Virus record (IMG/VR): IMGVR_UViG_2778261172_000006
Coordinates: 1-37,263 of that record
DNA from: a virus
Taxonomy: Duplodnaviria > Heunggongvirae > Uroviricota > Caudoviricetes
Reading direction: 5' to 3' (one strand)
Length of the DNA: 37,263 nt
Below are positions 1,508 through 28,677 of the stretch, in pieces; within the stretch, counting starts at the first letter, position 1; each line of letters starts with the position of its first letter. A program made the position numbers and the translations under genes. The notes beneath the pieces were generated by a model. The model was not told the DNA's origin. It was given only the letters and a program-made list of their open reading frames with translations, and made no database searches.

Positions 1508-2029
1508 ATGCGGGACTTCATTGCCGATAAAGAGTTATCTGACCACCAACCACTTCAGGAAAGTGACACACTCAGCGGATCCATTGATGCCGCCAACGAC
1601 GACGAACACGAAGAAAACAAGAAAAAGCGCTCCTACAAAAAAGGAGCGACTTTACGGCTGGATGGTCCGATCGCCGGGCTTTGCTCTCTGGAAAAAGGCG
1701 CGGCATATATTGGCCTAACAAAATCTGCACTGCGCGTAGCCATTCATCGCGGTCAAATGCCGGGACACAAAACGCGCACAAACCCAGAAGATGAAAACTC
1801 AGACGGAGTATGGTGGTTTAACGCCAAAGAGTGGGACAAGTTGGCTGATGAGCTACCAGAGTACGAGCCCCCAGAATGGCACAACTGGAAAAGTTACTGG
1901 ACGTATGACCGCCAGAAAAGAAAGTTCTCTCCAGCCGACAAAGAAGACTGCCAGACCGTTAACGGAAAACGGGTTTATATGGGTAGAAGCTCAAAGCTGG
2001 AGCGACTCAAAAGCAGCGAAGGCAACTAA
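1508..2029 (+). CDS. Cox-like excisionase/early regulator with N- and C-terminal extensions
   Basis: ATG at 1508 with AGAGGA RBS; central segment GAAYIGLTKSALRVAIHRGQMPGH and GVWWFNAKEW resemble the P2 Cox HTH and aromatic motif; 173 aa versus about 90 for Cox. Confidence 0.55.
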   Translation: MRDFIADKELSDHQPLQESDTLSGSIDAANDDEHEENKKKRSYKKGATLRLDGPIAGLCSLEKGAAYIGLTKSALRVAIHRGQMPGHKTRTNPEDENSDGVWWFNAKEWDKLADELPEYEPPEWHNWKSYWTYDRQKRKFSPADKEDCQTVNGKRVYMGRSSKLERLKSSEGN

Positions 2030-2039
2030 ACACACAAAA

Positions 2040-2246
2040 ATGACCAACAACATCACCAATATCATTTTGACCCTCGTTCTTTTTGAAGTGGGCGTGGTAG
2101 TGATTTGGCTTCTTCGCAAATTAACAGGGTATGAGGAACGCTTTATGGCTCTCAATGTTGAATACATCACTGCTTATGCCAGAGGTCTTTTTCCGGCTGC
2201 CATTGGGGCAATGATCATGGTGTTTGTCATCTGGTTTATCGGGTAG
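2040..2246 (+). CDS. small hydrophobic membrane protein (68 aa)
   Basis: ATG at 2040; two hydrophobic stretches (ITNIILTLVLFEVGVVVIWLL and FPAAIGAMIMVFVIWFI); weak RBS. Confidence 0.45.
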   Translation: MTNNITNIILTLVLFEVGVVVIWLLRKLTGYEERFMALNVEYITAYARGLFPAAIGAMIMVFVIWFIG

Positions 2247-2257
2247 AGGTGCAAAAA

Positions 2258-2611
2258 ATGAATAAGCAACAGCGTAATTCTTCACAGCAGCGCTTCCGCA
2301 ACGGCGCAGAACGCCATGCTAACCGTTTCGCTACCAGTGCATCACGTAGCAACTCTCGCTACAGCCTGAGCGAAACACACGCAACGCCGGATGGCTACCC
2401 AGTAAAACAAATCGGCGAGCATACCTGGCTGATTGAGAAAGCTGGAATCGTGGTCCACAAATGCCCACGCAATCCGTTTACCGGAAACCGCATTTTTGCA
2501 TTGAGCTGCGGCGACAATCAGTTCGGGCAGGATTTCACATTATACGAAGCATTACGCACGGTTGATCGTCTGCTTCGCGGGCAAAGTTTTATTAAACAGA
2601 CTGATTTATAA
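2258..2611 (+). CDS. hypothetical early protein (117 aa)
   Basis: ATG at 2258 with GAGGTG RBS; ORF in the early-operon orientation. Confidence 0.5.
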   Translation: MNKQQRNSSQQRFRNGAERHANRFATSASRSNSRYSLSETHATPDGYPVKQIGEHTWLIEKAGIVVHKCPRNPFTGNRIFALSCGDNQFGQDFTLYEALRTVDRLLRGQSFIKQTDL

Positions 2612-2621
2612 CAGGTGCGTT

Positions 2622-2909
2622 ATGACCAAAGAGCATGCACAAAGTGTATTTATCCGTTTTATTGATTTTCGCGGTGAACTGTTATTACGTGCATCCGCTA
2701 TTGATGGAGTGACTCCGGCGGGTAAAAACGGAGCCGACGAAGCCACTTACGTTTATCTGAACGGCACGCGACTGCTTGTGGAACTTCCGTACCAGACCGT
2801 ACGAGAAATCATTAGCGAAGCTGAAAAGGCACGCCAGGTTAATGGCGATGAACCCTATATCGAAATTATTTGTATGGATTCAGAAACTGAAATTCAGAAA
2901 GCAGATTAA
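2622..2909 (+). CDS. hypothetical early protein (95 aa)
   Basis: ATG at 2622 with AGGTG RBS. Confidence 0.5.
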   Translation: MTKEHAQSVFIRFIDFRGELLLRASAIDGVTPAGKNGADEATYVYLNGTRLLVELPYQTVREIISEAEKARQVNGDEPYIEIICMDSETEIQKAD

Positions 2910-2920
2910 AGGGCGTTGCG

Positions 2921-3163
2921 ATGGGCAAAGAATATAAAACTCTCATTAACAAAGCACTTGAGCGTTTTTATTTTCGCTTAAGTGCATCAGGCGCTCATGC
3001 TGAACGTGCAGCCCGTGACTCATTGACCAGGGCAATCCGGAGTCTGTATGACGTGGCTTTTTACGCTGATGATCTGGATGCACTTAACGAACTTTCCGAG
3101 CTGATCTGTGCCGCAGAATGCGGGGAACATATTGAACCGTATAAGCTGGGGAATATCGCATGA
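2921..3163 (+). CDS. hypothetical early protein (80 aa)
   Basis: ATG at 2921; stop overlaps next start (ATGA at 3160-3163). Confidence 0.5.
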   Translation: MGKEYKTLINKALERFYFRLSASGAHAERAARDSLTRAIRSLYDVAFYADDLDALNELSELICAAECGEHIEPYKLGNIA

Positions 3164-3273
3164 GTATATTTATCTCATGGCTTGTTCTGATTATTTCGGT
3201 GGTCTGCGCCATTGGGATTATGCGAATTATTAATTCAGTAAAAAAGATTGAACGCTTTTTCACTGGTGAATAA
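3160..3273 (+). CDS. small single-TM peptide (37 aa), not in the ORF track
   Basis: ATG overlapping the upstream stop; translation MSIFISWLVLIISVVCAIGIMRIINSVKKIERFFTGE is a hydrophobic helix followed by a basic tail. Confidence 0.35.
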   Translation: MSIFISWLVLIISVVCAIGIMRIINSVKKIERFFTGE

Positions 3274-3359
3274 CAGCGCAAATAAAACCACAGATTAAAT
3301 AAGAAAACGTGAAAACAATCCGCATTCGCGGAGGTATTCGCACATGCCAAGGAGGCGCA

Positions 3360-3563
3360 ATGGCAATTAAGCGTTTTTCCGTCATTCGTTTCACATCCAG
3401 AGGGCGTGAATACGAAGTTGACGAACGGCTGATTAAAACGCTCGACCGTCACCGTTCGCAACCTGACGCGCATCACATTTATCTCACTGACGACACTTAC
3501 TTCTGCGCCACCAACGTGGTGCAGGTGAACCTTATCCGACAGGTACAGGAGTCACGCAGATGA
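3360..3563 (+). CDS. hypothetical early protein (67 aa)
   Basis: ATG at 3360 preceded by AGGAGG; stop overlaps next start. Confidence 0.5.
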   Translation: MAIKRFSVIRFTSRGREYEVDERLIKTLDRHRSQPDAHHIYLTDDTYFCATNVVQVNLIRQVQESRR

Positions 3564-3805
3564 CCATTCTGGACTACATCGCCGCCAATCCGGGTTGTAG
3601 CGGCGGAGAAATCGCCGCAGCACTGAATACCCCAACCACAGCCATTAATGCTGAGTTACGCCGACTCTGGCGCGACGGCTTAGTCATCAGAGAAGAACGC
3701 AAAACAGGCGGTCGATTCTCTTACCAGGTAAACCCGATGCCGTTCGGGTGTGGCAACCCGCTTACTCACTTGTTTAACCAGCTACTGAAGGAAGCCAGAG
3801 CATGA
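3560..3805 (+). CDS. small winged-helix-like DNA-binding protein (81 aa)
   Basis: ATGA overlap with upstream and downstream genes; segment GCSGGEIAAALNTPTTAINAELRRLWRDGLV resembles a wHTH. Confidence 0.5.
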   Translation: MTILDYIAANPGCSGGEIAAALNTPTTAINAELRRLWRDGLVIREERKTGGRFSYQVNPMPFGCGNPLTHLFNQLLKEARA

Positions 3806-4101
3806 GCACCATCAACCACCAGGAACTACGCGAACTGGCGACTGACCTGCAACGAATGGCAACGCATCAAAAATTACTGGCGTTTCGCGCAATGCTCTCG
3901 CCGTCTGCCGTGCTGGCGCTACTGGATGAACTGGAGCACGCCAGAACCATGGCTCCTGCCATTCGCCTGACGCTCCATCATGAAATCGCTGATTTCTGCG
4001 CACCACTGGGTTCGCCTGGTGAACCAGAAACGCCGGAAGCAATGCAACGAGAGCTACTGCAACGCATCGACAAGGTTTTTGATTTTTTCCTTAACCAGTA
4101 A
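3802..4101 (+). CDS. hypothetical early protein (99 aa)
   Basis: ATGA-coupled ORF; predicted helical. Confidence 0.5.
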   Translation: MSTINHQELRELATDLQRMATHQKLLAFRAMLSPSAVLALLDELEHARTMAPAIRLTLHHEIADFCAPLGSPGEPETPEAMQRELLQRIDKVFDFFLNQ

Positions 4102-4112
4102 AGGACCGCGAT

Positions 4113-4316
4113 ATGAACAAAAAGACCTGGTTTCGCGCATACATGTGGGCGCTGGTATGCGTCCTCGTTTCTCTCATTCTGTATGCAGGACTACTCCCCC
4201 GAATGATTTCATCAGACAGCTCCTTCCTGGTATTGCTGGGCATTTTCATTGCCATGCTGTACCCGGCAGGCGTTGTTCGCCTTTTCAGTAAGTACATCAA
4301 GGAAATCAAACAATGA
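4113..4316 (+). CDS. small two-TM membrane protein (67 aa)
   Basis: Two hydrophobic helices (YMWALVCVLVSLILYAGLL and FLVLLGIFIAMLYPAGVV); stop overlaps the SPFH gene start (ATGA at 4313). Confidence 0.55.
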   Translation: MNKKTWFRAYMWALVCVLVSLILYAGLLPRMISSDSSFLVLLGIFIAMLYPAGVVRLFSKYIKEIKQ

Positions 4317-5143
4317 AGAAATTCAAACTCTTTCAGATTATCCCGCTTTTTGCCGCCATCCTGCTGGCTGGTTGCGATCGCGTTGAGCCAGGTAATGTGG
4401 GCATCAAAGTCAACAAACTGGGCGACGACAAAGGCGTCGGCGAAGTGGTCGGCGTTGGCCGCTACTGGACTGGCTGGAATACAGAGGTTTACATCTTCCC
4501 AACCTTCAAACAAATGAAGACCTACGATGAGCCGTTCAGCTTCCAGATGAGTGACGGCACAACCATCGGCTATCACATCGGCGTGGCTTACAAGGTTGAT
4601 CCATCCAAAGTTACCACAGTGTTTCAGACCTACCGCAAAGGCGTGGATGACATTACCGACACTGACCTGCGCCAGAAGATCGCCGACGCACTCAACCGAC
4701 TGGCCAGCAAAATGACCACCGATAAATTCATCGACGGTGGCAAGTCTGAACTGCTGGATTCAGCACTTAAAGATATTCAGGCAGAAATGACACCCATCGG
4801 CATTCAGGTAATGAGCCTCTCTTATGTCGGTAAACCGGAATACCCGCCAACCGTGATCGACAGCATTAATGCCAAAGTCACAGCGAACCAGAAAACCCTG
4901 CAACGCGAACAGGAAGTAAAACAGCGCGAAGCAGAAGCCAACATGTTGCGCGCAGAAGCTGCCGGACAGGCTGATGCCATTCGCACAAAAGCCCAGGCTG
5001 AAGCCGACGCCATTCGTTTACGCGGTGAAGCTCTGCGCCAGAATCCCGGCGTTATGGAGCTGGAAGCAATCAACAAATGGAACGGCACGCTGCCGCAATA
5101 CATGACCAGCAATACCGCTGTTCCGTTTGTTCCGGTGAAGTAA
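4313..5143 (+). CDS. SPFH/band-7 (prohibitin-like) domain lipoprotein
   Basis: N-terminal signal with lipobox LLAGC; central SPFH-like core; C-terminal Ala/Glu/Gln/Arg-rich coiled-coil (QREQEVKQREAEANMLRAEAAGQADAIR...). Confidence 0.75.
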   Translation: MKKFKLFQIIPLFAAILLAGCDRVEPGNVGIKVNKLGDDKGVGEVVGVGRYWTGWNTEVYIFPTFKQMKTYDEPFSFQMSDGTTIGYHIGVAYKVDPSKVTTVFQTYRKGVDDITDTDLRQKIADALNRLASKMTTDKFIDGGKSELLDSALKDIQAEMTPIGIQVMSLSYVGKPEYPPTVIDSINAKVTANQKTLQREQEVKQREAEANMLRAEAAGQADAIRTKAQAEADAIRLRGEALRQNPGVMELEAINKWNGTLPQYMTSNTAVPFVPVK

Positions 5144-5311
5144 TTAAACCCGGCCAGTGAAAATCGCTGGCCGGAGCAGTATCAGGATTTTTTAGTATGC
5201 CGTTCTCACAAAAAAACCGCTTGCCATGCCGCAATCAGTCAGGTTACATTTCCGCTGCACCTCATAAAACGGGTGCCGGGATTTCCACCCCGCTGACAAC
5301 TACAGCGCACA

Positions 5312-5331
5312 ACCGCGCCAGCGGTTTTTTT
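5312..5331 (+). terminator. candidate intrinsic terminator
   Basis: ACCGC-GCCA-GCGGT hairpin directly followed by seven T residues. Confidence 0.5.
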
Positions 5332-5510
5332 GTGCGTACTGTATCGCCACGTCTTTTTCGCACACGAATTATGGTGGGGCGTACGGGGCCGACTTCGGTC
5401 GGGCCGGGTTCTGTAGTTGCCGGTTGTGGAAACCCTGTACGTCTCACCACCCCGAGTTTTCCACCTCTGGATGGTGAGTTTTCAAAACTTGCAACTACAG
5501 AGGCCACACC

Positions 5511-5741
5511 ATGGCAAACCGCAAACAGCACCGCGCTATCGCGGAGCGTCGTCACATCCAGACTGAAATCAACCGCAGACTTTTCCGCGCATCACGCGTC
5601 GCGCAAATCATGCACATCAATATGCTGCATGAACGCAGTCACGCACTATCGAACAGCTATTCCGCCTCTGTTTTCAGCTATCTGGCGGATGATCTGCGCG
5701 AGCTTCAGCAGCTCATCCAGCAGCAAAACAAACTCCATTAA
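5511..5741 (+). CDS. hypothetical small basic protein (76 aa)
   Basis: ATG at 5511 with AGAGG about 8 nt upstream; Arg/His-rich helical sequence; overlaps antisense and alternative ORFs so coding status is uncertain. Confidence 0.4.
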   Translation: MANRKQHRAIAERRHIQTEINRRLFRASRVAQIMHINMLHERSHALSNSYSASVFSYLADDLRELQQLIQQQNKLH

Positions 5742-5813
5742 TTCTGGTTCCGGGCCTTTCCTGCACCTTGCGGCGGGAGGCCTTCGCACATCTGTAACAA
5801 GAGGATTGCCGCA

Positions 5814-6179
5814 ATGATTCTCGCCAACGACTTTCTTGAATACCTGCTCAACACAGAGCGCGATCTTGCCGTTCGCGTGCGTGACCGTTATGACATGTAC
5901 CTGAAATCCCTGCCTGTACCGCAGCTCGCTGACGGAAAGATTGTTATTGATGGCCGCTACATGATTGACAGCCACGAGGGAAATTACAGGCTTTACCGCA
6001 TTGAAGGCGGCACCCCGTCCGTTATTGGCATTTACCAGCACCCATCCTCTGCGATCGTCGATGTGATTGCAGACAGCATCCGCATCACACATCGCTATGC
6101 CGACACAGAAGACACCGTACTGGAAATTCAGCGGCTGGCTGCCGTTTGCCGTGACACCCTGAACGGTATGACGAAGTAA
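5814..6179 (+). CDS. hypothetical protein immediately upstream of A (121 aa)
   Basis: ATG at 5814 with AAGAGGA RBS. Confidence 0.55.
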   Translation: MILANDFLEYLLNTERDLAVRVRDRYDMYLKSLPVPQLADGKIVIDGRYMIDSHEGNYRLYRIEGGTPSVIGIYQHPSSAIVDVIADSIRITHRYADTEDTVLEIQRLAAVCRDTLNGMTK

Positions 6180-6185
6180 ATCAGT

Positions 6186-9008
6186 ATGACGACAGAGTAC
6201 ATCAGGGACTGGCAACAACCGCGCCACGCAGTAGGGCGTGAAGGAACGGGGATCCCCACTCCTGAATCCGCGCTTTCCTCCTGGCTGGATGCCTACCGGG
6301 CAGAGAACGAGCGCCACCAGGAAAAGGCTGATGCGGCGTTCTCCGCCACGCCACTGGGCAACCTGATTAATAAAAGCCTGGACGCACAGGAAAAACAGGA
6401 CAAAACCATCACGCTGGCAGGAGAAGCCAGAAGACAGACACGCGGCACGGTGGATGAAGCCATGGCCTCGCTGCGCCTGCTGCCGTCCTATCTGCGCGAT
6501 CCGCTTATTCGCCACCTCTCCTTCCTGCGCAAAAAACAGGAAGCCGATCTCCGGAAAGAAAAAAATGCCTGGCAGGCAGAAAACTATGCACGCGGAACCC
6601 TGCGCAAGATATTCGTTCGCATTAACCGTGCCGACAGTCGCTGGCTGACACCGGGTTATCGCTCCCTCGCCGGACGTGAGCGTCTGGATGATTTGCTTTA
6701 CCTGCCGCAGCTCAATAAACACCAGATACAGACACTGGCCACCATGACAGCGGCAATGTTCAGCAGCACCTTCGAAACACTCTGTGATGGTTTCGGTGCC
6801 AAAGATGGCGAGCTGACCATGGAGGTGGCACTGAAGGCGTATCAGATGCTGGCCCGCATGGCGTTACACCTGCACACCGTGCCGCCGCATTACGAAGCAC
6901 TGACAACAGACAAAGACCGGAGGAACGAACCGGACACGGAGCTGCTGCCGGGCGCAATCCTTCGTCTGACCTGTGCGGAATGGTGGAAACGCAAACTGTG
7001 GCTGTTACGTTGCGAGTGGCGGGAAGAACAACTCCGTGCCGCCTGTCTGGTTTCCAGAAAAACATCGCCCTATCTGAGCCAGGACGCGTTAAGCGAGTTT
7101 CGCGCACAGCGCGAGAAAACACGCGATTTTCTGAAAAGTTTCATGCTGGAAAACGAAGACGGGTTCACGATTGATCTCGAGACAGTGTATTACGCGGGAG
7201 TAAGTAACCCGGTTCACCGTAAGGCAGAAATGATGGCCACCATGAAGGGGCTGGAACTTCTGGCCGAAGCCCGTGGCGACAAAGCGGTGTTTCTGACTGT
7301 CACCTGCCCGTCAAAATACCACGCCACAACGGAGAACGGTCATCCGAACCCCAAATGGAACGGGGCCACCATGCGCGACTCCAGCGATTACCTGGTTAAC
7401 ACGTTTTTTGCGGCGGTCCGCAAAAAACTGAACCGCGACGGTCTTCGCTGGTATGGCATCCGCACGGTGGAGCCTCACCATGACGGCACCGTGCACTGGC
7501 ATATGATGGTCTTTGCTCATCCGGAAGAAATCGACAGCATCGTGGCCATCACCCGCGATATTGCCATTCAGGAAGACCGCCACGAGCTGGGTGATGATAT
7601 TACCCCACGCTTTAAGGTGGAGTATGTCGACGGCTCAAAAGGCACACCAACCAGCTACATCGCCACCTACATCGGAAAGAACCTGGACAGCCGCGCCGTG
7701 GATGGCATCGACCCGAAAACGGGCAAGCCACGCGTTGACCACGAAACAGGAAAATCAATGACCGAGAGCGTGGAACGCGCCATCGGCTGGGCGCGCCTTC
7801 ACCGGGTCCGCCAGTTCCAGTTCTTTGGCATTCCCTCCCGTCAGGTGTGGCGTGAACTCCGCCGCCTTGCCAGCCAGATGGCACGCAACCCGGAAGGCCC
7901 GCAACGGCTGAAGAATGACGCAATGGATGCGGTACTCGCTGCCGCCGATGCCGGGTGTTTTGCCTCCTACATTGAAAAACAGGGCGGCGTACTTGTTCCA
8001 CGCAAAGACTACCTGATTCGCACCGCCTACGACCTCGCAGATGAGCCGAACGATTACGGCGAACAGAGCGTACAGATTTACGGGATCTGGTCACCACTCA
8101 TCGGGGAATCCTCCCGTGTGTGCACGCACCCGGATAACTGGAAGCTGGTAAGACGTAAACCGGAAGCGGAAGACAACACCCGCGAAAATGGTTTTGACCT
8201 TCAGGGCGGCCCTGCCGCCCCTTGGACTCGTGGCAATAACTGTCCCCGTGTACAGGAAACGGACAACAACGGGACAGAACAGCCGGAAGAACGGCCAGCA
8301 CCGTGGCCGCAGCTTCCTGACGGCATTGAAGTGAACGAATGGATGCGCTCACTGAAACGGCACGAACGCCGGGCGCTGATGCGTTCGCTTCGTGACAAAC
8401 AGGCAAAAAACAGCAGTGATGAAATGCAGAGCTGGACACAGAGCCGCAAACAGCAGCGGCCTTTGCCTGATAACCACGAATTACTCGCTAGAGAATGGCG
8501 GGAGTCTGCTGAATCTCTCGGCCTGCATATCGGTGAACAACAAATGCAGCACCTGTTACGGGGCGGCAGTCTGTACGTTGACGGCAGCATCATTGCACCG
8601 CAGGGATTTGAAATTGTACGCAAACCGGATACCCGCCCGGACAGCCGAATCACGCAGCTCTGGCAACGCCTGAGCCGTAATCACGGCGTAAGCAGCACGG
8701 AGATCCGCCATAACCCGGTCGCCAGCTATCTGGAACAGCTGGGGGCATCAGACCCTGAAGCCGCCGCACGCCTGGCATCCACACTTCAGCAGGACCAGAA
8801 CACCATGAAAACACCCGTTACCGTGCTTTCTGACATGCTGCGCGCCATCCGCGACGCAGAGCACGCACAGAGAATCAGTGAAACCACTGAACGCGCCCGC
8901 CGCAAAGCAGACCTGCTGCGGGGTGGCCTGACCAGTGGAAACAAAAAACAGACAGAAACGGGATTCACAAATCCCGTAAATGAGCAAAAAACGCGCCGCG
9001 ATATATGA
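6186..9008 (+). CDS. A: replication initiation endonuclease, P2 gpA family, with long C-terminal extension
   Basis: 940-aa ORF; HxH-type motif (TVHWHMMVF) and P2 A-like core around residues 330-600; position between early genes and the cargo region. Confidence 0.88.
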   Translation: MTTEYIRDWQQPRHAVGREGTGIPTPESALSSWLDAYRAENERHQEKADAAFSATPLGNLINKSLDAQEKQDKTITLAGEARRQTRGTVDEAMASLRLLPSYLRDPLIRHLSFLRKKQEADLRKEKNAWQAENYARGTLRKIFVRINRADSRWLTPGYRSLAGRERLDDLLYLPQLNKHQIQTLATMTAAMFSSTFETLCDGFGAKDGELTMEVALKAYQMLARMALHLHTVPPHYEALTTDKDRRNEPDTELLPGAILRLTCAEWWKRKLWLLRCEWREEQLRAACLVSRKTSPYLSQDALSEFRAQREKTRDFLKSFMLENEDGFTIDLETVYYAGVSNPVHRKAEMMATMKGLELLAEARGDKAVFLTVTCPSKYHATTENGHPNPKWNGATMRDSSDYLVNTFFAAVRKKLNRDGLRWYGIRTVEPHHDGTVHWHMMVFAHPEEIDSIVAITRDIAIQEDRHELGDDITPRFKVEYVDGSKGTPTSYIATYIGKNLDSRAVDGIDPKTGKPRVDHETGKSMTESVERAIGWARLHRVRQFQFFGIPSRQVWRELRRLASQMARNPEGPQRLKNDAMDAVLAAADAGCFASYIEKQGGVLVPRKDYLIRTAYDLADEPNDYGEQSVQIYGIWSPLIGESSRVCTHPDNWKLVRRKPEAEDNTRENGFDLQGGPAAPWTRGNNCPRVQETDNNGTEQPEERPAPWPQLPDGIEVNEWMRSLKRHERRALMRSLRDKQAKNSSDEMQSWTQSRKQQRPLPDNHELLAREWRESAESLGLHIGEQQMQHLLRGGSLYVDGSIIAPQGFEIVRKPDTRPDSRITQLWQRLSRNHGVSSTEIRHNPVASYLEQLGASDPEAAARLASTLQQDQNTMKTPVTVLSDMLRAIRDAEHAQRISETTERARRKADLLRGGLTSGNKKQTETGFTNPVNEQKTRRDI
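8956..8980. repeat. 25-bp palindromic element, copy 1 (AAACGGGATT-CACA-AATCCCGTAAA)
   Basis: 8-bp inverted repeat ACGGGATT/AATCCCGT with 4-nt spacer, inside the 3' end of A. Confidence 0.7.
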
Positions 9009-9084: not shown

Positions 9085-10044
9085 ATGAAAATTTGTATCG
9101 ACGACGGCTCCACCAACATCAAGCTGGCATGGACTGAGAACGGCGAACGCCGCAACGCCATCAGCCCGAACAGCTTCAAGTCGGAATGGTCTGCGCCGTT
9201 CGGTGGCACGCAGCCCGCGAACTACATGCTTGATGGCGTGCGCTATGGTTTTGATCCGGTCAGCGATCGCTTTGTCCAGACGACCGACACGCAATACCAG
9301 TACAGCGATGTGAATGTCATTGCCATTCATCACGCGCTGGTCAAATCAGGCATCACGCCACAGGAGGTGGATGTGGTTGTCACCCTGCCACTGAGCGAGT
9401 ATTTCGACACAAACGCACAGCCGGACATGGCCAACATCAACCGCAAAAAAGCGAACGTTATGCGCCCGGTGGAGTACCAGAACGGCGAAGCATTCACTAT
9501 CCGTAACGTGCGGGTTATGCCTGAATCCATTCCGGCTGGCTTTAAGGCACTGGCTGACATGAGTCCGTTTGAATCCCTGCTGATTGTGGATTTAGGCGGA
9601 ACCACGCTGGATGTGGCAAAGGTTCAGGGGCAACTGGCAGGTATCAGCCAGGTGTTTTGCGATCCACACGTAGGCGTTTCCCTGATGGTCGATGCCGTGC
9701 TGTCGGTGATGGCCGCTAACGGTATGCGTACCAGTCACCACATCGCCAATACCATTATCGAACATCGCCATGATGAAGCCTGGTTGCGCCAACACATCCA
9801 CAATGACGCGCATTACGCCAGCCTGATGGCGGTTATTCGTGAAAAGGAAGAAACACTGAAACAACGCGTGATCCGCGCGCTGGCGGGTTTTTCGGGTTAC
9901 GGACGGGTGATGGTTGTCGGTGGCGGGGCGGAGATTGTGGCACCCGCTATCCGCGAAGCCTGCGGAGTTAATGCGACTTTCATCGCGGACGGGGTGCCAC
10001 AGTTTGCTCTGGTTAATGGGCTGTACGCAATGGACAAGGAGTAA
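9085..10044 (+). CDS. parM: ParM/StbA-like actin-type segregation ATPase
   Basis: 319 aa; N-terminus MKICIDDGSTNIKLAW, SDVNVIAIHHAL, VMPESIPAG, DLGGTTLD and VVGGGAE match remembered plasmid R1 ParM motifs along the whole length. Confidence 0.85.
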   Translation: MKICIDDGSTNIKLAWTENGERRNAISPNSFKSEWSAPFGGTQPANYMLDGVRYGFDPVSDRFVQTTDTQYQYSDVNVIAIHHALVKSGITPQEVDVVVTLPLSEYFDTNAQPDMANINRKKANVMRPVEYQNGEAFTIRNVRVMPESIPAGFKALADMSPFESLLIVDLGGTTLDVAKVQGQLAGISQVFCDPHVGVSLMVDAVLSVMAANGMRTSHHIANTIIEHRHDEAWLRQHIHNDAHYASLMAVIREKEETLKQRVIRALAGFSGYGRVMVVGGGAEIVAPAIREACGVNATFIADGVPQFALVNGLYAMDKE

Positions 10045-10382: not shown

Positions 10383-10814
10383 ATGGCAACTATTCCCAAA
10401 AAATGGTTACAACGCAAAATCGCAGACCTTGAATCGTGTCGTGAAGACATCCCATTTGGCCTTGATGAAAACGATCACAATATGTTAATCGCACTGAAAA
10501 TCGCACTCACATCGCTGGAAGCGAAACCTGTTGCATGGACTGATGATGAGGAACTGCGTGATGTCAAGCAGTATGGTTTCGGTGAGATATTTCAGTGTCC
10601 GCCAGATAAATACGCGGATCCGCGCCGTGTTATCCCTATGTATCAAGAGCCGCCAGCGCCAGCAGTACCAGATGGGCTGGTTAGAGCGGTGCGTTTCTAT
10701 GAACAGGTTAAGCGTGAAAATCCGCCAGCCGAAACCGGAGCATGGAAAGACGCTGTTGACTGGGTGCTCAAAGAGGCCTGCCAAGTTGTAAACACTGGCA
10801 TCAAAGGAGACTGA
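10383..10814 (+). CDS. hypothetical protein (143 aa)
   Basis: ATG with GGAGAGG RBS; contains motif IALKIALTSLEAKPVAW. Confidence 0.55.
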   Translation: MATIPKKWLQRKIADLESCREDIPFGLDENDHNMLIALKIALTSLEAKPVAWTDDEELRDVKQYGFGEIFQCPPDKYADPRRVIPMYQEPPAPAVPDGLVRAVRFYEQVKRENPPAETGAWKDAVDWVLKEACQVVNTGIKGD

Positions 10815-10815
10815 T

Positions 10816-11025
10816 ATGGCTATTGCCGCAAGTTACACCATGCATCTCTATTGTGATTGCCTCCAGTGTACAGATGGCAAATATAAGTCGCCAGACTTCG
10901 GTGAGTATATAGGTACGTCATGGGCTGGCTGTGCAAAAGAGGCGCGCAAGGATGGCTGGCGAATAAGCAAAGACAAAACGCGTGCTTTTGCGCCCGGGCA
11001 TAAAGTTTTGAGGATTAACAAATGA
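10816..11025 (+). CDS. hypothetical small Cys-rich protein (69 aa)
   Basis: ATG 1 nt after upstream stop; CDCLQC...C pattern. Confidence 0.5.
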   Translation: MAIAASYTMHLYCDCLQCTDGKYKSPDFGEYIGTSWAGCAKEARKDGWRISKDKTRAFAPGHKVLRINK

Positions 11026-11282
11026 CCACTTTAACCGACAAAGAACTGATTAAAGAAATCAAAGAGCGCATAGGCAGCCTAGACGTGAGAGACAATATTG
11101 AACGCCGTGCTTATGAAATTGCTCTGGTATCGCTGGAAGCAGAGCCAGTAGCATGGATGCATGTAAATAACGGCATCGGAATACCAGCAATAACAAGGAG
11201 TAAAGAGGTTGCAGAGAGTTGGTTATCAAAAGGCTGGTATGTCCAACCCTTACATCTAGCCCAGCCTGCATCAAAGCTATAG
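11022..11282 (+). CDS. hypothetical protein (86 aa)
   Basis: ATGA overlap with upstream ORF; shares motif IALVSLEAEPVAW with the 10383 ORF. Confidence 0.5.
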   Translation: MTTLTDKELIKEIKERIGSLDVRDNIERRAYEIALVSLEAEPVAWMHVNNGIGIPAITRSKEVAESWLSKGWYVQPLHLAQPASKL

Positions 11283-11292
11283 AAATGAGCCA

Positions 11293-11319
11293 AAACGCCC
11301 TCTTCCAGGGCGTTTATTT
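11293..11319 (+). terminator. intrinsic terminator after the parMR-linked operon
   Basis: 9-bp stem AAACGCCCT/AGGGCGTTT with 5-nt loop followed by TATTT. Confidence 0.6.
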
Positions 11320-11322
11320 CAA

Positions 11323-11349
11323 TGCACAATAGTGCACAAATTTGCACAA
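11323..11349. repeat. three TGCACAA heptamers phased at exactly 10 bp (11323, 11333, 11343)
   Basis: Direct reading; a fourth copy at 11415-11421 and a GGATCCGT direct repeat at 11393-11411 lie nearby. Confidence 0.7.
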
Positions 11350-11848
11350 TTTTTTTGAACGACTTTTTGCCCTTCCGGCCCGCGGGGCGACTGGATCCGT
11401 CAAGGATCCGTGCGTGCACAAAAAAACGCGCTTTTTCTGCGCGCAGGTGACGGGGGAACAGCCCGCGTTTCAGGGGGTAAATAGCATTCCCTGAACGATG
11501 TCGCAGCGACACAACAGAATGGCTGTCTTTCTCACGCTGAGCGTAAAAAAGACGTGAGGGCTTTTGATTTGATGGGGTGGCAGATAAGGCCGTCAAAATC
11601 GCACTGAGGCGGCGAGAACATGCAGTCAGCGCAGTGGGATTGCGTAAGAGTCTGACCGTCGATGATGGAAATAAGCAGGAAAGCGTCGTGAAATTATCTG
11701 ACTGATACAGGAGCTGGAGAGTCGGGGCATAAATTTTTTATGCCCCGGCGAAGCAGCAGACAAGCGAAGCGCGTCAGCGATACGGCACCTTGCCGACCAT
11801 ACTTCATAAGTGCAAAATACGAGCAAAGAAATCAATGGAGGCTGTCTT

Positions 11849-12373
11849 ATGGTCATTAATTACAAGCAGTTAAGAGAAAAACGGGAGCAGGTAAAGGAGA
11901 GCTTTCGCCGCAATGAAGATCTGACCCCGCTTGTACGCCTTGCCCAGGGCATTGTTGACGCTTATGAAATCTCGCTGGAGCTGCCATCACAGACCTGGAC
12001 AGATAGCGACGGTAATCGCCAGCATTACATTTCATGCGGACTGGAAGCAGCCGAAGGATTTCGCAGAATGCCTTTATCCCAGATCCCTGCCGCAACCCCC
12101 AAAGCAAGAGGCAGCAATGATGAGCGAAAACTGACTTTCAGCATTGAGACAGTGGTTGACGACACACCTGGCGAAGTCGCGTTCGTGCACACTCCTGTTT
12201 CGATCGCAATGTATAACGATGAAATACAGGTTCGCGTTAATAATAATATCGTGCCACTTAAAGAAGGTAATTCACCCTACACCACCGTTTGTGAAGCCAT
12301 TCAATATTACGTTCTCTCTGAAATTGATAATCTCAAGCCTGACGGCACCCAGAAAATGGTTCAACTCTGGTAA
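11849..12373 (+). CDS. hypothetical protein (174 aa) between cos-proximal region and portal gene
   Basis: ATG at 11849 with GGAGG 8 nt upstream; convergent with Q and ending in a strong hairpin terminator. Confidence 0.55.
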   Translation: MVINYKQLREKREQVKESFRRNEDLTPLVRLAQGIVDAYEISLELPSQTWTDSDGNRQHYISCGLEAAEGFRRMPLSQIPAATPKARGSNDERKLTFSIETVVDDTPGEVAFVHTPVSIAMYNDEIQVRVNNNIVPLKEGNSPYTTVCEAIQYYVLSEIDNLKPDGTQKMVQLW

Positions 12374-23808: not shown

Positions 23809-25911
23809 ATGAGTACCACAACACGAAAATTTAAAACCGTTATCACCGATACGGGCGCAAAAAAATTAGCTCAGGCAGCCGCGCCAGATGGTAAGCCTGT
23901 CCGCCTGACTCATATGGCCGTGGGCGACGGTGGCGGCACGTTGCCCACACCAGACAGTAAGCAGACCCGTCTGGTGCATGAGGTGTGGCGACACACTGTT
24001 AATCGCGTCATCCTGGACGCAACACATCAGAACCGCATTATTGCGGAGCTGGTTATTCCTCCTGAAACGGGCGGATTCTGGATCCGGGAAATTGGTGTAT
24101 TTGATGAGCACGGCGATTTAATCGCGGTGGGCAATACTGCCGAAAGTTACAAACCAACCGTTGCCGAAGGGTCCGGACGTGCACAAACATTTCGCACCAT
24201 TCTGACCGTATCCAGCACTGCCACCGTGGCGCTTACCGTGGATAACACCATGGTGATGGCCACAGTGGATTACGTGGATGACAAACTGAAAGAGCATGAA
24301 CAGTCACGACGTCACCCGGACGCCTCGCTGACCGCAAAAGGCTTTGTTCAACTCAGTAGCGCCACTAACAGCGATTCTGAAACGCTGGCTGCAACGCCGA
24401 AAGCGGTTAAGGCCGCGTATGACCTGGCTAACGGAAAATATACCGCTCAGGACGCCACGACGGCACGAAAAGGGATAGTCCAGCTCAGCAGTGCAACCAA
24501 CAGCACGTCTGAAACGCTGGCAGCGACACCAAAAGCGGTTAAGGCGGTAATGGATGAAACGAACAAGAAAGCCCCATTAAACAGCCCGGCACTGACCGGA
24601 ACGCCAACAACACCAACTGCACGACAGGGAACGAATAATACCCAAATCGCAAGCACGGCTTTCGTTATGGCCGCGATTGCCGCACTTGTAGATTCGTCAC
24701 CTGACGCACTGAACACGCTGAACGAGCTGGCGGCGGCGCTGGGCAACGACCCGAATTTTGCGACCACCATGACTAACGCGCTTGCGGGTAAGCAACCGAA
24801 AGATGCCACCCTGACGGCGCTGGCCGGGCTTGCTACTGCGGCAGACAGGTTTCCGTATTTTACGGGGAATGATGTCGCCAGCCTGGCAACCCTGACAAAA
24901 GTCGGGCGGGATATTCTTGCGAAATCGACCGTTGCTGCCGTTATCGAATACCTCGGTTTACAGGAAACGGTAAATCAGGCTTCTGGCGCATTACAGAAAA
25001 ACCAGAACGGCGCAGATATTCCGGGAAAAGATACCTTCACCAAAAATATTGGGGCCTGCCGCGCATATAGCGCATGGCTGAATATTGGTGGCGATAGTCA
25101 GGTCTGGACAACCGCGCAATTTATTTCGTGGCTGGAGAGTCAGGGAGCATTTAACCATCCTTACTGGATGTGCAAAGGCTCATGGGCTTATGCAAATAAT
25201 AAGGTCATTACAGATACAGGTTGCGGAAATATTTGTCTTGCAGGTGCTGTGGTGGAAGTTATTGGTACTCGCGGCGCAATGACCATACGCGTTACTACGC
25301 CGAGCACGTCCAGCGGTGGCGGAATTACTAACGCTCAATTCACTTATATTAATCATGGTGATGCTTATGCTCCTGGCTGGCGACGAGACTACAACACGAA
25401 AAATCAACAACCTGCATTTGCTTTAGGGCAAACAGGAAGCACTGTCGGAAATGATAAAGCTGTTGGCTGGAACTGGAATAGCGGGGTCTATAACGCAAAC
25501 ATTGGTGGCGCATCGACATTAATCCTCCACTTCAATATGAATACGGGGAGCTGCCCTGCTGTACAGTTCCGCGTGAATTACAGGAACGGCGGTATTTTTT
25601 ATCGTTCAGCGCGTGATGGTTATGGATTTGAGGCTGACTGGTCAGAGTTTTACACCACGACCCGCAAACCCTCTGCGGGAGATGTTGGTGCATACACGCA
25701 GGCAGAATGTAACTCAAGGTTTATTACAGGTATTCGCCTTGGCGGTCTGTCATCTGTTCAGACATGGAATGGCCCCGGCTGGTCTGACAGGTCAGGTTAT
25801 GTCGTTACGGGTTCAGTTAACGGAAACCGTGATGAATTAATTGATACAACACAGGCAAGGCCAATTCAGTATTGCATTAATGGAACGTGGTATAACGCGG
25901 GGAGTATTTAA
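23809..25911 (+). CDS. H: tail fibre protein (P2 gpH family); C-terminal part encoded inside the invertible segment
   Basis: 700 aa; internal SSATNS-ETLAATPKAVKA repeats; C-terminus CINGTWYNAGSI; constant part ends at the left crossover site. Confidence 0.9.
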   Translation: MSTTTRKFKTVITDTGAKKLAQAAAPDGKPVRLTHMAVGDGGGTLPTPDSKQTRLVHEVWRHTVNRVILDATHQNRIIAELVIPPETGGFWIREIGVFDEHGDLIAVGNTAESYKPTVAEGSGRAQTFRTILTVSSTATVALTVDNTMVMATVDYVDDKLKEHEQSRRHPDASLTAKGFVQLSSATNSDSETLAATPKAVKAAYDLANGKYTAQDATTARKGIVQLSSATNSTSETLAATPKAVKAVMDETNKKAPLNSPALTGTPTTPTARQGTNNTQIASTAFVMAAIAALVDSSPDALNTLNELAAALGNDPNFATTMTNALAGKQPKDATLTALAGLATAADRFPYFTGNDVASLATLTKVGRDILAKSTVAAVIEYLGLQETVNQASGALQKNQNGADIPGKDTFTKNIGACRAYSAWLNIGGDSQVWTTAQFISWLESQGAFNHPYWMCKGSWAYANNKVITDTGCGNICLAGAVVEVIGTRGAMTIRVTTPSTSSGGGITNAQFTYINHGDAYAPGWRRDYNTKNQQPAFALGQTGSTVGNDKAVGWNWNSGVYNANIGGASTLILHFNMNTGSCPAVQFRVNYRNGGIFYRSARDGYGFEADWSEFYTTTRKPSAGDVGAYTQAECNSRFITGIRLGGLSSVQTWNGPGWSDRSGYVVTGSVNGNRDELIDTTQARPIQYCINGTWYNAGSI
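24340..24558 (+). repeat. tandem repeat of about 132 bp inside H, encoding GxVQLSSATNSxSETLAATPKAVKA twice
   Basis: Two 44-aa units visible in the H translation. Confidence 0.75.
24941..24974 (+). repeat. left crossover (gix-like) site
   Basis: TTATCGAATACCTCGGTTTACAGGAAACGGTAAA, inverted copy of 28002-28035 (31 of 34 identical); contains the TTCCTGTAAACCGAGGTTT core I recall for Mu gix. Confidence 0.85.
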
Positions 25912-26450: not shown

Positions 26451-26480
26451 AAGGCCCGCTATCGGGCCTTAATTTTTATT
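26451..26480. terminator. bidirectional terminator between the convergent tfa genes
   Basis: AAGGCCCG-CTAT-CGGGCCTT hairpin followed by AATTTTTATT. Confidence 0.65.
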
Positions 26481-27003
26481 CAGGCTTTTGTGGCCATTCA
26501 GGATTTGCCGTATCCACACGGCTGACCAGAACACTGTAGCGTTCCCATGACTCCAGTCGTGCGCGCTCCTCATCCGTCGCCATATTCAGCCTGACAGCGC
26601 GTTCCAGTGGCTGAATAACGCTTTCTGCTTCGGAAAGTAACGCAGCCTTTTGTGATTCGGCCTGTTGTTGCTGTTCATCAGCCGTATAAATCCGTTTAAC
26701 CACAGCTCCGTCCTTAAACATCCACTTTCCTGAATCATCAGCGCGGCGGTTGGCTGTAATATCGGGAACCTCAACGACGCTAAAGCCTTCAGGGTTAAGC
26801 GTAGAGGCATCCTTGGTGATAGCGACAATAATATTATTTTCATCGTAAACAATCTTTATTGTGTCTGGCTGAAAGTTTTTCACTTCCTCATACCAGTTTT
26901 TTCCGTCTTCGGACCACAACCAGATAACGTCAAAATTCTTTGTTAATTCGTACTGCTCCAGTGTTTTAGCATTACCCGTTTTTATATTCTTTAAGTGCAT
27001 CAT
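26476..27003 (-). CDS. alternative tail fibre assembly chaperone (Tfa', inverse orientation)
   Basis: 175 aa, N-terminus [14 protein letters not shown] paralogous to G; minus strand inside the invertible segment. Confidence 0.85.
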
Positions 27004-27004
27004 A

Positions 27005-27985
27005 CTAAACGCTCGCTACATTATACCAGGTGCCATTTATATACTTTTGAACGGGTCTGTAATAAACGCCCGCTATATTATCGGCAGAGTTGGACCCTGT
27101 ATCCTGAACATTAATACCAGACAATACATGACCTGACGGGCACTGGAAATTCCATGTTTGCCAGTTGTTCACTCCATAATATTGCTGTGAACCAAGTCGA
27201 ACATCTTTCACATATCTGGAATCAAAATTGCCATAGTTGCCGGGAATAACTTGCGAGCCGCAAAGCCAGTTCCCGTTATTATCCATGTACGCCTGACCAT
27301 CGGTACCATTGGCTGTCCTTGAGTTATTAATCATGTAGATGCCAAATTGCTTATTCCCCAATCCACCTATCATGAACTTGCGGTCGGCGTGATTCTGGCG
27401 AAGCAACGCCTGAGCGCTATCAGTGTTAACTATATTTTTCCCAAAGATAGCGTTGTTATCGCGCATCTGAATCCACATACCATTACTGCTGTTAATAGCA
27501 AAACGGTCTGAAAGTGTCTCCCCTGAAACATTAAGACCACGCCCCATCGAAACAGCGCCAGTAGCGTTATTAATCCATAATGGCCTTAATCCGTTATAAG
27601 TCCCCATGTTGTCACCGGAGTTTGTCAACATGAAGTATGTATTTGAACCATCATTACGAATAAAGAATCCGTAATTACCATAAGCAATACGTAGGCCGTT
27701 TGCTGATTTTGATATGACTTCGCCATTTACAATGGCATTGACAAGAACATACAAAGCATCCCATTTAAGATTCATCAGGTCTTTTGTTGTGGTGCTTTGT
27801 TTGCTTCTCCATTTGAAATATTCATTGCCGTTGTCGCCTGTTTCAAACCACATGAATGAATCAGTATCGCTGTCGGCATCATTTTTAAAACCAATCTTCG
27901 CCCAGTCGGTATTTCGAATCCATGCAAGAATTGAGTCGTTTTCAAAAGTAAGTCCACCGGACAAGATATCGCCTGTCTTTTGCAC
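27005..27985 (-). CDS. alternative tail-fibre C-terminal cassette (no start of its own; reading frame stays open through the right crossover site to 28027)
   Basis: Frame upstream of the track start reads [15 protein letters not shown], matching EYLGLQETVN at the H crossover; C-terminus [11 protein letters not shown] paralogous to the H C-terminus. Confidence 0.8.
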
Positions 27986-28001
27986 GGCGTTACCAGCCTT
28001 G

Positions 28002-28035
28002 TTTACCGTTTCCTGTAAACCGAGGTTTTAGATAA
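28002..28035 (-). repeat. right crossover (gix-like) site
   Basis: TTTACCGTTTCCTGTAAACCGAGGTTTTAGATAA. Confidence 0.85.
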
Positions 28036-28089
28036 TGGCCGTTTCCGGCCTGCATGGCATGATTTGCGCTTTTGGACGGGAGATTCAGC

Positions 28090-28677
28090 GTGCTGATTGG
28101 CTATGTAAGGGTATCAACAAATGACCAGAATACAGACCTGCAACGAAACGCTCTTGTTTGTGCAGGATGTGAACAAATATTTGAAGATAAATTAAGCGGG
28201 ACAAAGACAGACCGACCGGGATTAAAACGCGCTTTAAAGCGCCTTCAAAAAGGTGACACGCTGGTTGTCTGGAAACTGGATCGCCTCGGGCGAAGCATGA
28301 AACATCTGATTTCTCTCGTCGGGGAACTACGGGAGCGAGGAATTAATTTTCGCAGTCTGACCGACAGCATAGATACATCTTCTCCAATGGGGCGTTTTTT
28401 CTTCCACGTGATGGGTGCCCTGGCTGAAATGGAACGTGAATTAATTGTTGAACGTACACTGGCCGGACTGGCGGCAGCACGCGCACGGGGGCGCACAGGC
28501 GGACGTCGACCGAAGCTGACAAAAGAACAGCATGAGCAAATAGCAAGGCTAATCAAAAACGGGCACGACAGAAAACAACTGGCAATAATTTACGGCATTG
28601 GTATATCGACGATTTATCGTTACCACCCCGCAGGAGAATCAAGGGGAACAATTGAGAAGAGTCAGGAAACAAAATAA
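28090..28677 (+). CDS. serine DNA invertase (Gin/Pin/Cin/Hin family)
   Basis: GTG start after GGGAG; VLIGYVRVSTNDQNTDLQRNALVCAGCEQIFEDKLSGT... is near-identical to the remembered Mu Gin sequence, including the catalytic Ser region and C-terminal HTH. Confidence 0.95.
   Translation: MLIGYVRVSTNDQNTDLQRNALVCAGCEQIFEDKLSGTKTDRPGLKRALKRLQKGDTLVVWKLDRLGRSMKHLISLVGELRERGINFRSLTDSIDTSSPMGRFFFHVMGALAEMERELIVERTLAGLAAARARGRTGGRRPKLTKEQHEQIARLIKNGHDRKQLAIIYGIGISTIYRYHPAGESRGTIEKSQETK

Follow-up and report, generated by a model that had tools for sequence, protein, structure and literature searches.

The stretch of DNA analysed here (hereafter the window) comprises 37,263 nucleotides, positions 1 to 37,263 of the IMG/VR virus record IMGVR_UViG_2778261172_000006, and is a prophage of the P2 family (Peduoviridae, Xuanwuvirus). 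Its early region contains a module of two overlapping genes on the + strand, which is the subject of this study. The first gene (positions 4113–4316) encodes a small membrane protein of 67 residues, and the second (4313–5143) encodes a 276-residue lipoprotein of the SPFH (stomatin, prohibitin, flotillin, HflK/C) type. An earlier note on this DNA had placed both open reading frames (ORFs) at these positions, and the same boundaries were recovered here. The ATG of the SPFH gene lies at 4313 and the TGA of the small gene at 4314–4316, so that the two genes share 4 nt in an ATGA overlap (4313–4316). A Shine-Dalgarno-like site is present at each start. For the small gene this is AAGGA at 4101–4105 (+), 7 nt ahead of its ATG, and for the SPFH gene it is AGGAAA at 4300–4305, inside the end of the small gene, which gives a coupling junction at 4300–4316 (+). 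This arrangement bears out the translational coupling that the note had read from the ATGA.

The SPFH protein starts with a predicted lipoprotein signal peptide. Residues 1–20 (MKKFKLFQIIPLFAAILLAG, encoded at 4313–4372, +) end in the lipobox L-A-G before Cys21, and the whole segment can be written as MKKFK-LFQIIPLFAAIL-LAG-C21, which fits a charged N-region followed by a hydrophobic core and the pattern [LVI][ASTVI][GAS]C. In an alignment of 20 homologues the Cys21 column is nearly invariant. The N terminus therefore has the features of a bacterial lipoprotein, a substrate of the Sec/signal peptidase II pathway, and lipidation of Cys21 is predicted. Cys21 is followed by Asp22 at the +2 position and an Arg at +3. 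Asp at +2 is the classical signal for Lol avoidance, or inner-membrane retention, in E. coli. The +2 residue is a Tyr in N4-like homologues and a Glu in T5-like homologues, and the localisation may differ across the SPFH family.

The mature chain, Cys21 to Lys276 (4373–5143, +), is prohibitin-like and belongs to the family of PHROG 200, P88 gp12 and N4 gp20; the match of the 276-residue protein to phrog_200 has an E-value of 8.4e-112. The Pfam family Band_7 (PF01145) covers residues 23–209 and almost the entire profile (positions 2–176 of 176) with E = 7.6e-31 and 107.9 bits, against a gathering cut-off of 23.6 bits. The AlphaFold2 model, with a mean pLDDT (predicted local distance difference test score) of 78, consists of a β-rich core with strands and helices (residues 20–176), a 65-residue helix (residues 179–243), a short helix (residues 245–255) and a disordered C terminus. 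Lipobox, Band_7 match and long helix together support the earlier description of an SPFH lipoprotein with a coiled-coil tail. Toward the C terminus, the motif KW[ND]GxLP, which reads KWNGxLP in the window protein, is conserved family-wide among the SPFH homologues.

When a profile of 20 homologues was compared with the PDB, it matched prohibitin-2 (E = 4e-10), HflC, HflK, erlin-1/2 and QmcA. Foldseek gave a similar picture. The best structural matches, with a probability of 1.00, were cage-forming SPFH proteins that face the non-cytoplasmic side, namely HflC/HflK (7vhq, E = 1.7e-13), the human prohibitin complex (8rrh) and erlin1/2, and these were followed by stomatin and flotillin, likewise with a probability of 1.00, and QmcA (E = 7e-8 for QmcA). 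The NCBIfam equivalog models scored 24.8 bits for hflC (TIGR01932; cut-off 134.4 bits) and 22.7 bits for hflK (TIGR01933; cut-off 159.4 bits). Because these scores are far below the cut-offs, the protein is considered prohibitin-like and not an orthologue of HflK or HflC. The name given by NCBI to many of the homologues is "prohibitin family protein".

The 67-residue partner (4113–4316, +) belongs to the family of PHROG 1130, P88 gp11 and N4 gp19 (phrog_1130, E = 1.3e-22). It contains two hydrophobic 17-mers, at residues 12–28 and 39–55, with Kyte-Doolittle means of 2.5 and 2.4, in agreement with the two-helix membrane protein proposed in the note. There are three Lys/Arg residues in the N-terminal tail and four in the C-terminal tail, and the loop is close to neutral. 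The predicted arrangement is a hairpin of two transmembrane (TM) helices with both termini in the cytoplasm (N-in/C-in) and a short periplasmic loop, LLPRMISSDSS, that contains Pro29. This proline is invariant in an alignment of 15 partner homologues, and the inter-helix loop P-x-[ML]-[IV]-S-[SA]-x-[DNS] is common to the homologous partners in the phages that were checked. Neither the window protein (E ≤ 0.1) nor the 15 homologues (E ≤ 1) matched NfeD or any consistent Pfam family, and the size of the protein, which is taken up by two TM helices, leaves no space for the soluble OB-fold domain of NfeD. Single-sequence searches with the partner returned close relatives only (19 word-indexed matches and 14 exhaustive matches). 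One of the 14, P0265, was rejected as a spurious repeat protein. Since the partner is too short and divergent for such searches, its family was traced through the neighbours of the SPFH genes.

With tblastn, the SPFH protein found matches in 670 phage records, and the groups to which these belong differ widely. Sixteen phage loci, in which the SPFH identity ranges from 99% down to 25%, were inspected by hand. A homologous 2-TM partner of 62–84 residues abuts or overlaps the SPFH start in P88, a P1 variant, phiP27, Erwinia phage S6 and the N4-species phage AlfredRasser, as well as in Pseudomonas phage Hali, Rhizobium phage IC12, Burkholderia phages vB_E253 and BcepF1, and Alcaligenes phage QDWS595. 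In the P1 variant and in phiP27 the partner ORF is unannotated. T5-like phages differ in that a single small ORF lies between the partner and the SPFH gene downstream of it. The pair is present, then, in P2-, P1-, lambda-, N4- and T5-like phages. In coliphage N4 it corresponds to gp19/gp20, where the SPFH protein is ~62–66% identical to that of the window and the partner has the same loop motif. In AlfredRasser the gene just upstream of the pair (positions 1413–1727 of locus L085) carries the label "superinfection exclusion protein", and ~850 nt past the pair on the downstream side there is a MoxR ATPase; both identifications are by annotation only.

A hidden Markov model (HMM) built from 11 partners was run over 11,792 ORFs in 280 phage loci at E ≤ 1e-3, and the position of each match was scored against the HMM-aligned start of the SPFH gene. 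There were 256 matches, every one of which (256/256) is on the same strand as the SPFH gene and directly upstream of it. An identical overlap of −4 nt occurs in 210 of these 256 pairs. Apparent misses, L223 and L160 among them, are members that score below the threshold but share the architecture and the motif. The earlier note had made its reading depend on the conservation of the pair, and with 256 adjacent pairs in 280 phage loci this conservation is evident. The SPFH match and the linkage in 256 pairs are far beyond chance. No third gene was found to be conserved with the pair in these loci, and the partner is the only neighbour that is kept across lineages. Judging from this pattern, the pairing appears to be ancient and nearly obligatory. 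Where the SPFH gene is more distant, the small protein encoded upstream is a different one, in most cases with TM segments; U47 was still grouped with the partner family via a nearby gene.

The pair also occurs in bacterial genomes. DNA homologues are present in 536 of 5,426 complete E. coli genomes (~10%), with a full-length cassette in 145 genomes. Two hundred of the E. coli match places are on plasmid records, and the plasmid matches listed are ~75–103 kb. PLSDB contains 197 plasmids with a match, of which 192 are non-mobilizable, a figure that fits P1-like phage-plasmids. In a wider cellular survey with one genome per species (79 loci), the partner is directly upstream of the SPFH gene in 56 loci, which span Gammaproteobacteria, Bacteroidota, Leptospira, Dependentiae and Actinobacteria. 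Four further loci in high-GC genomes also have the partner (L291, L314, L324 and the fusion L298), and a displaced partner is found upstream in two more loci (L342 and L343). In the latter, from Shigella flexneri and E. coli chromosomes, the two genes do not overlap; the partner gene is located ~770 nt upstream, which implies an insertion between it and the SPFH gene. The pair was found in Rhodanobacteraceae, Burkholderiales, Flavobacterium, Bacteroidales, Saprospirales, Leptospira, Dependentiae and Actinobacteria.

Several of these chromosomal copies are syntenic. All seven Leptospira species (L349–L351, L354, L355, L357 and L359) share their flanking genes at a locus that is not a prophage. 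The flanks include sdhCAB (succinate dehydrogenase), ArsR, a β-lactamase-fold protein and YkuD, and the locus also adjoins a conserved 158-residue gene without a Pfam match. In Rhodanobacteraceae (within L281–L322), again outside prophages, the flanks are shared in ~24 of 37 species, and the pair lies beside a gene for a BlaR1-type M56 peptidase; the flanks in Dyella are a BlaR1-type peptidase, hemerythrin and ribonucleotide reductase. A search of PADLOC-DB v2 with the SPFH protein gave no match, and the small protein gave a whole-sequence match of 0.0078 with no passing stretch. The presence of syntenic chromosomal copies among housekeeping genes, together with the lack of a PADLOC match, argues that the basic activity is of a general kind at the membrane and not that of a dedicated defence system. 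What the phages carry is thus a mobile version of a two-gene membrane module of bacteria, the core activity of which is probably a general membrane function that is not specific to phages. The two genes travel together through many families of phages and several phyla of bacteria, as a self-contained module that is horizontally mobile.

The mobility of the module can be seen at the nucleotide level in a sister phage, P88_4B11. In a blastn comparison, window positions 2504–4101 correspond to positions 1705–3301 of the P88_4B11 locus (L002; 93% identity), and positions 5207–7000 correspond to 3320–5113 (92%). P88_4B11 has only 18 bp where the window has 1,105 bp, and relative to this phage the two-gene cassette is a precise 1,105-bp insertion at 4102–5206 (+). 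The possibility of a different gene in this slot of P88_4B11 was ruled out by the same comparison; the cassette is simply absent. The inserted DNA consists of a ribosome binding site, the two genes and a strong hairpin. This 11-bp hairpin follows the SPFH stop at 5150–5174 (+) and is stable, with a folding energy of −21.8 kcal/mol and a z-score of −4.0, none of 200 shuffled sequences being as good. A terminator scan gave no call at this position, and the hairpin is not a canonical terminator, since the T-run begins ~12 nt later. Escherichia phage P88, in which the small gene is annotated as gp11 and the SPFH gene as gp12, is collinear with the window across the whole compared region (locus L001; 94.6% by blastn). 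The nucleotide identity is 95.6% over window positions 3300–5300, and the SPFH proteins are 98.9% identical.

The cassette is located between the cox and A genes. The window is annotated with an integrase (1–1008, −), a helix-turn-helix (HTH) repressor (1063–1521, −) and a Cox-like gene (1508–2029), and the GPA replication protein is encoded at 6186–9008 (Pfam Phage_GPA, E = 5.7e-130), followed by a P2-like late region. This agrees with the early-region position assigned in the earlier note, as does the run of overlapping small ORFs that it described upstream of the pair (3360–4101). These are an ORF at 3360–3563, an ORF for a winged-helix protein at 3560–3805 (Pfam MarR_2/HTH_24, E = 2e-8) and, directly upstream of the pair, an ORF at 3802–4101 with a weak Ead/Ea22-like match. 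The gap between the stop of the Ead-like ORF and the small gene is 11 nt, which leaves no space for a promoter belonging to the cassette. A scan for sigma-70-like promoters found none near 4113, and the whole region had 4 sites where 5.0 were expected. The sequence places the cassette within the early (cox-to-A) lytic operon with no promoter of its own, and it is most likely the early lytic promoter that drives its expression. Homologous pairs are found in the early or middle regions of virulent phages, for example N4 gp19/gp20 beside the RNA polymerase II genes and genes 001/002 of BcepF1. The pair of phiP27 is located in the leftward int-xis operon.

The topology of the two proteins relative to each other is suggested by natural fusions. 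Partner and SPFH protein have been joined in frame in two independent cases: P0020, a 347-residue protein of a P1-like E. coli element with 8 member sequences, and L298 (3785–4936) in a metagenome-assembled genome of the actinobacterial family Iamiaceae. Each of these may be functional or a frameshift artefact. The order in both fusions is the 2-TM hairpin, then the signal-peptide helix, then the SPFH domain, and this order is coherent only with an N-in/C-in hairpin and an SPFH domain on the outside. The positive-inside charge pattern of the partner agrees with such a hairpin.

A comparison of the P88, P1-variant and phiP27 versions shows that the parts of the module have diverged at very different rates. 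The mature SPFH proteins are 97–98% identical in these three, but the partners are only 22–43% identical and the signal peptides 32–37%. When the DNA is compared with the lambdoid (phiP27/Stx) and P1-type versions, similarity starts abruptly at 4364–4373, 1–3 codons before the lipobox Cys. Such an abrupt boundary at the junction of signal peptide and mature protein looks like modular recombination and not like gradual drift. The 97–98% amino acid identity of the mature SPFH protein is maintained at 86–93% nucleotide identity, which we read as strong purifying selection. As one mature SPFH protein works with very different partners, any contact between the two must use the short conserved loop.

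Other features of the window were noted in addition to the pair. Directly downstream of the cassette is the Hfq-binding small RNA isrK (5257–5331, 63.6 bits), together with a C4 antisense RNA (5367–5454, 80.5 bits) and a promoter-like site ahead of both RNAs (5221–5250). These are followed by a 76-residue ORF (5511–5741) that matches the Pfam "Derepression protein family" (E = 3.8e-7). The stretch 5221–5741 is common to the window, P88 and P88_4B11, and it looks like an RNA-controlled antirepressor or derepression module within a P2-like early region. A 206-residue ORF (5197–5817, +) covers the isrK and C4 RNAs, and its counterpart in P88_4B11 (3313–3930 of L002, 618 bp) is labelled "transcriptional regulator"; because it overlaps two RNAs confirmed by Rfam, it is probably a spurious gene call. 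Just 3' of replication gene A, in this integrase-bearing P2-like prophage, is a gene for an actin-like segregation ATPase of the ParM/StbA type (9085–10044, +; StbA_N E = 1.8e-82, ParM C-terminal domain E = 3.9e-68). A plasmid-partition function is unexpected in an integrating phage. Between the A/ParM region and the portal gene there are three ORFs (10383–10814, +; 11111–11596, −; 11810–12373, +), for which the Pfam and PADLOC searches gave zero matches, so that they are uncharacterised cargo. The position of this region (10383–12373) is that of the tin/old-type cargo in P2. Further downstream, a serine recombinase or invertase (28072–28677; Resolvase E = 1.5e-50, HTH_7) lies beside two opposite-facing ORFs (26476–27003, −, and 27005–27985, −). 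This region is downstream of a 700-residue ORF (23809–25911), which is taken to be a tail-fibre gene from its position, and 26476–28677 is probably an invertible host-range segment.

We tentatively favour an interpretation in which the pair forms a periplasm-facing SPFH scaffold or cage with a split anchor, produced together with the early lytic genes, and our confidence in it stops a little short of an even balance. The SPFH protein, lipidated at Cys21, would once exported be tethered at the periplasmic face of the inner membrane. By analogy with all structurally solved full-length SPFH proteins, it would assemble into a ring or dome by means of its long helix and C-terminal segment. Because a lipid anchor reaches the outer leaflet only, the coupled partner would supply the part that spans the membrane. 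HflK/C, prohibitins and erlins build a transmembrane fence from their own N-terminal helix; here the two helices of the partner would take that part, and the SPFH domain would be contacted by the partner's conserved periplasmic loop with its invariant Pro. Early in lytic growth, the cage might enclose or condition a patch of the inner membrane or a host client, as HflK/C does FtsH; this is the weakest step of the proposal. More speculatively, the envelope and membrane proteome of the infected cell could thereby be kept favourable to phage production. The pair would then be an accessory fitness factor and not a dedicated defence expressed by the prophage.

Several observations weigh against this scaffold model. 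Nothing ties the module specifically to FtsH or to another client. The Arg at +3 may weaken the retention signal, and the +2 rule is itself a prediction; the Glu at +2 in T5-like phages implies that some members of the family could reach the outer membrane. A Cytophagales-type SPFH subfamily occurs without the partner, and the SPFH homologues of phiEa104, Ccr2 and Staphylococcus phage K likewise lack it and have other small TM proteins or none. The partners diverge (22–43% identity) beside nearly identical mature SPFH proteins, and if the two form an intimate 1:1 complex, only the short loop motif could carry specificity. Alternatively, the partner could act independently of the SPFH protein.

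The proposed scaffold has parallels among known SPFH systems. E. coli HflK/HflC–FtsH resembles the phage protein in its SPFH fold, long helix, C-terminal segment and location on the periplasmic side (the HflK/C–FtsH complex is described as extending into the periplasm), and each would be a scaffold of the cage type. HflK/C differs in that it is a heteropair with its own N-terminal TM helices, whereas the phage module has a single SPFH gene and would be anchored by a lipid and a separate 2-TM protein. Mitochondrial prohibitin PHB1/2 and erlin1/2 of the endoplasmic reticulum, which are the best profile and top structural matches, face the topological equivalent of the periplasm. They are, however, eukaryotic hetero-oligomers with TM or hairpin anchors of their own, no lipobox and no separate 2-TM partner. 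A precedent for a membrane partner other than NfeD is provided by SamG/SamH–SamI (YdjGHI) of Bacillus subtilis, where small integral membrane proteins are described to recruit an anchorless SPFH protein. SamI is cytosolic and works with PspA, and the topology is opposite to that of the phage module. In the Kayvirus Staphylococcus phage K, which is virulent, a small TM gene (MbpV) likewise abuts an SPFH gene (MbpS). The MbpS SPFH protein is only ~25% identical, and MbpV has one TM helix with a long charged tail and is not matched by the partner HMM. Since the host of phage K is Gram-positive, the logic of a periplasm and a lipobox Asp does not apply there. The function of MbpV/MbpS is a matter of speculation by its authors.

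P88 gp11/gp12 and N4 gp19/gp20 are uncharacterised orthologues of the same two-gene family, and nothing material differs between them and the window pair. In databases the two genes are annotated separately, one as a lipoprotein, SPFH protein or "serine protease" and the other as a membrane or hypothetical protein. For 20 years, phage genome papers have noted the SPFH gene and called its role unclear, with speculation about control of lysogeny, adsorption or DNA entry, and secretion; a Vi01-like SPFH homologue has been detected by mass spectrometry. In the literature searched, the coverage of which is incomplete, no experimental function was found for the phage SPFH pair or N4 gp19/gp20, the conserved partner went unmentioned, and no paper treated the two genes as a unit.

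An alternative to the scaffold is superinfection exclusion, in which the early pair would act at the inner membrane to block DNA entry by secondary phages, or lysis-from-without caused by them, in concept like T4 Imm/Sp or HK97 gp15. The early-gene position, the occurrence in both virulent and temperate carriers, the patchy, accessory and cassette-like distribution and the envelope location predicted for the proteins would all suit such a role. So would the fast divergence of the partner, as seen in arms-race genes, and the annotation (only that) of the upstream neighbour in the N4-species phage as a superinfection exclusion protein. A phage-specific role is hard to square, though, with a syntenic chromosomal pair among housekeeping neighbours in Leptospira and Rhodanobacteraceae, and the strong purifying selection on the mature SPFH protein also speaks against it. 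No similarity to known superinfection exclusion families was found in Pfam, PHROGs or PADLOC, and no experiment in the searched literature. We regard exclusion as unlikely, but as an explanation that deserves to be kept in mind.

Similarity to HflK/C raises a second alternative, namely that the SPFH protein is a mimic that modulates the FtsH protease and thereby biases the lysis-lysogeny decision or stabilises phage proteins. Both by sequence and by structure, HflC and HflK rank with the best matches, the predicted periplasm-facing topology is that of HflK/C, and a role of this kind has been suggested by the authors for Burkholderia phage CSP3 and for Bruynoghevirus. On the other side, the scores are far under the HflK/HflC equivalog cut-offs, there is a single SPFH gene instead of a K/C pair, and the N-terminal TM helix is missing. 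Many carriers are strictly virulent (N4-like, T5-like, Felix O1-like and Kayvirus), and the cassette is placed in a lytic operon. P2-type phages, moreover, are to our knowledge without a CII-like FtsH substrate. An HflK/C mimic is therefore considered improbable.

A third alternative is expression in the lysogen, either as an abortive-infection or defence system or as a lipoprotein for lysogenic conversion or virulence (a moron). Prophages and P1-like plasmids have the module as an accessory cassette, which is found in ~10% of complete E. coli genomes, and an SPFH protein of a Pasteurella multocida prophage described as "HflK/C-like", Pmorf0222, has been reported as a virulence factor that activates TLR1/2 (PMC9872710), although the likeness is by description only. 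Yet the cassette adjoins no promoter-like site and sits in an early operon that is repressed in the lysogen. It has no PADLOC match, and virulent phages, for which a lysogenic state does not exist, have homologues in abundance; the syntenic cellular copies also fit this alternative poorly. Its probability is low.

The earlier note had likened the pair to bacterial NfeD–SPFH operons, and with respect to gene order the resemblance stands: a small membrane gene is adjacent to, co-oriented with and coupled to an SPFH gene, as in the nfeD–SPFH order described in the literature. In QmcA–YbbJ and the Pyrococcus stomatin pair PH1511/PH1510, too, one operon encodes the SPFH protein together with a small membrane protein, and partners of the NfeD type are thought to support SPFH oligomerisation. 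The resemblance does not extend to the proteins. The phage partner has neither an NfeD domain nor a protease domain, and the predicted orientation of the phage SPFH protein, on the periplasmic side, is opposite to that of QmcA–YbbJ, which protrudes into the cytoplasm. True homology to the NfeD–SPFH operon is very improbable, given that 0 of 15 partner homologues match NfeD at E-values up to 1, that a 67-residue partner with two TM helices has no room for an OB-fold, that the SPFH protein is predicted to be exported as a lipoprotein, and that QmcA is a weaker match than HflK/C, prohibitin and erlin.

The reading of these genes as an SPFH lipoprotein and a small membrane protein is already present in databases (P88 gp11/gp12, PHROGs 1130 and 200). 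What the comparative analysis adds is a partner that is nearly obligatory and is not NfeD but a 2-TM protein, the predicted periplasmic and lipid-anchored nature of the SPFH protein, the apparent mobility of the cassette and the syntenic counterparts in cellular genomes. There is no sign so far of a radically new mechanism. A bolder form of the scaffold proposal, which we hold to be distinctly doubtful, is that the pair is a minimal, portable SPFH nanocage with a split anchor, in which a lipid-tethered periplasmic dome would be combined with a ring of 2-TM hairpins. It would be a bacterial housekeeping module that was captured by at least 10 unrelated phage groups and is fired early to wall off the inner membrane. 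Its purpose might be to protect the membrane, either against abortive-infection effectors that form pores or depolarise it or against the DNA-entry machinery of incoming phages. If true, the pair would represent a widely distributed phage device for counter-defence or exclusion that is new as a class, and no earlier SPFH system would have had a defined partner other than NfeD.

SPFH proteins such as stomatin, prohibitin, flotillin or HflK/C are universal, and the physiological role of most bacterial members is described as still unclear in the literature. For the phage members, what had been a lone annotation is now a defined two-gene system. The pair is present in tractable model phages, including N4 (gp19/gp20), P1 variants, the P2-like P88 and T5-like phages. 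It offers a minimal two-gene handle on how SPFH scaffolds are anchored and what they enclose, and it provides a concrete candidate when early functions by which phages act on the inner membrane of the host are considered. Should a role in exclusion or counter-defence prove true, the pair would matter for host range in phage therapy and for the ecology of prophages; should it prove to be one of plain membrane homeostasis, the pair would be a useful model and no surprise.

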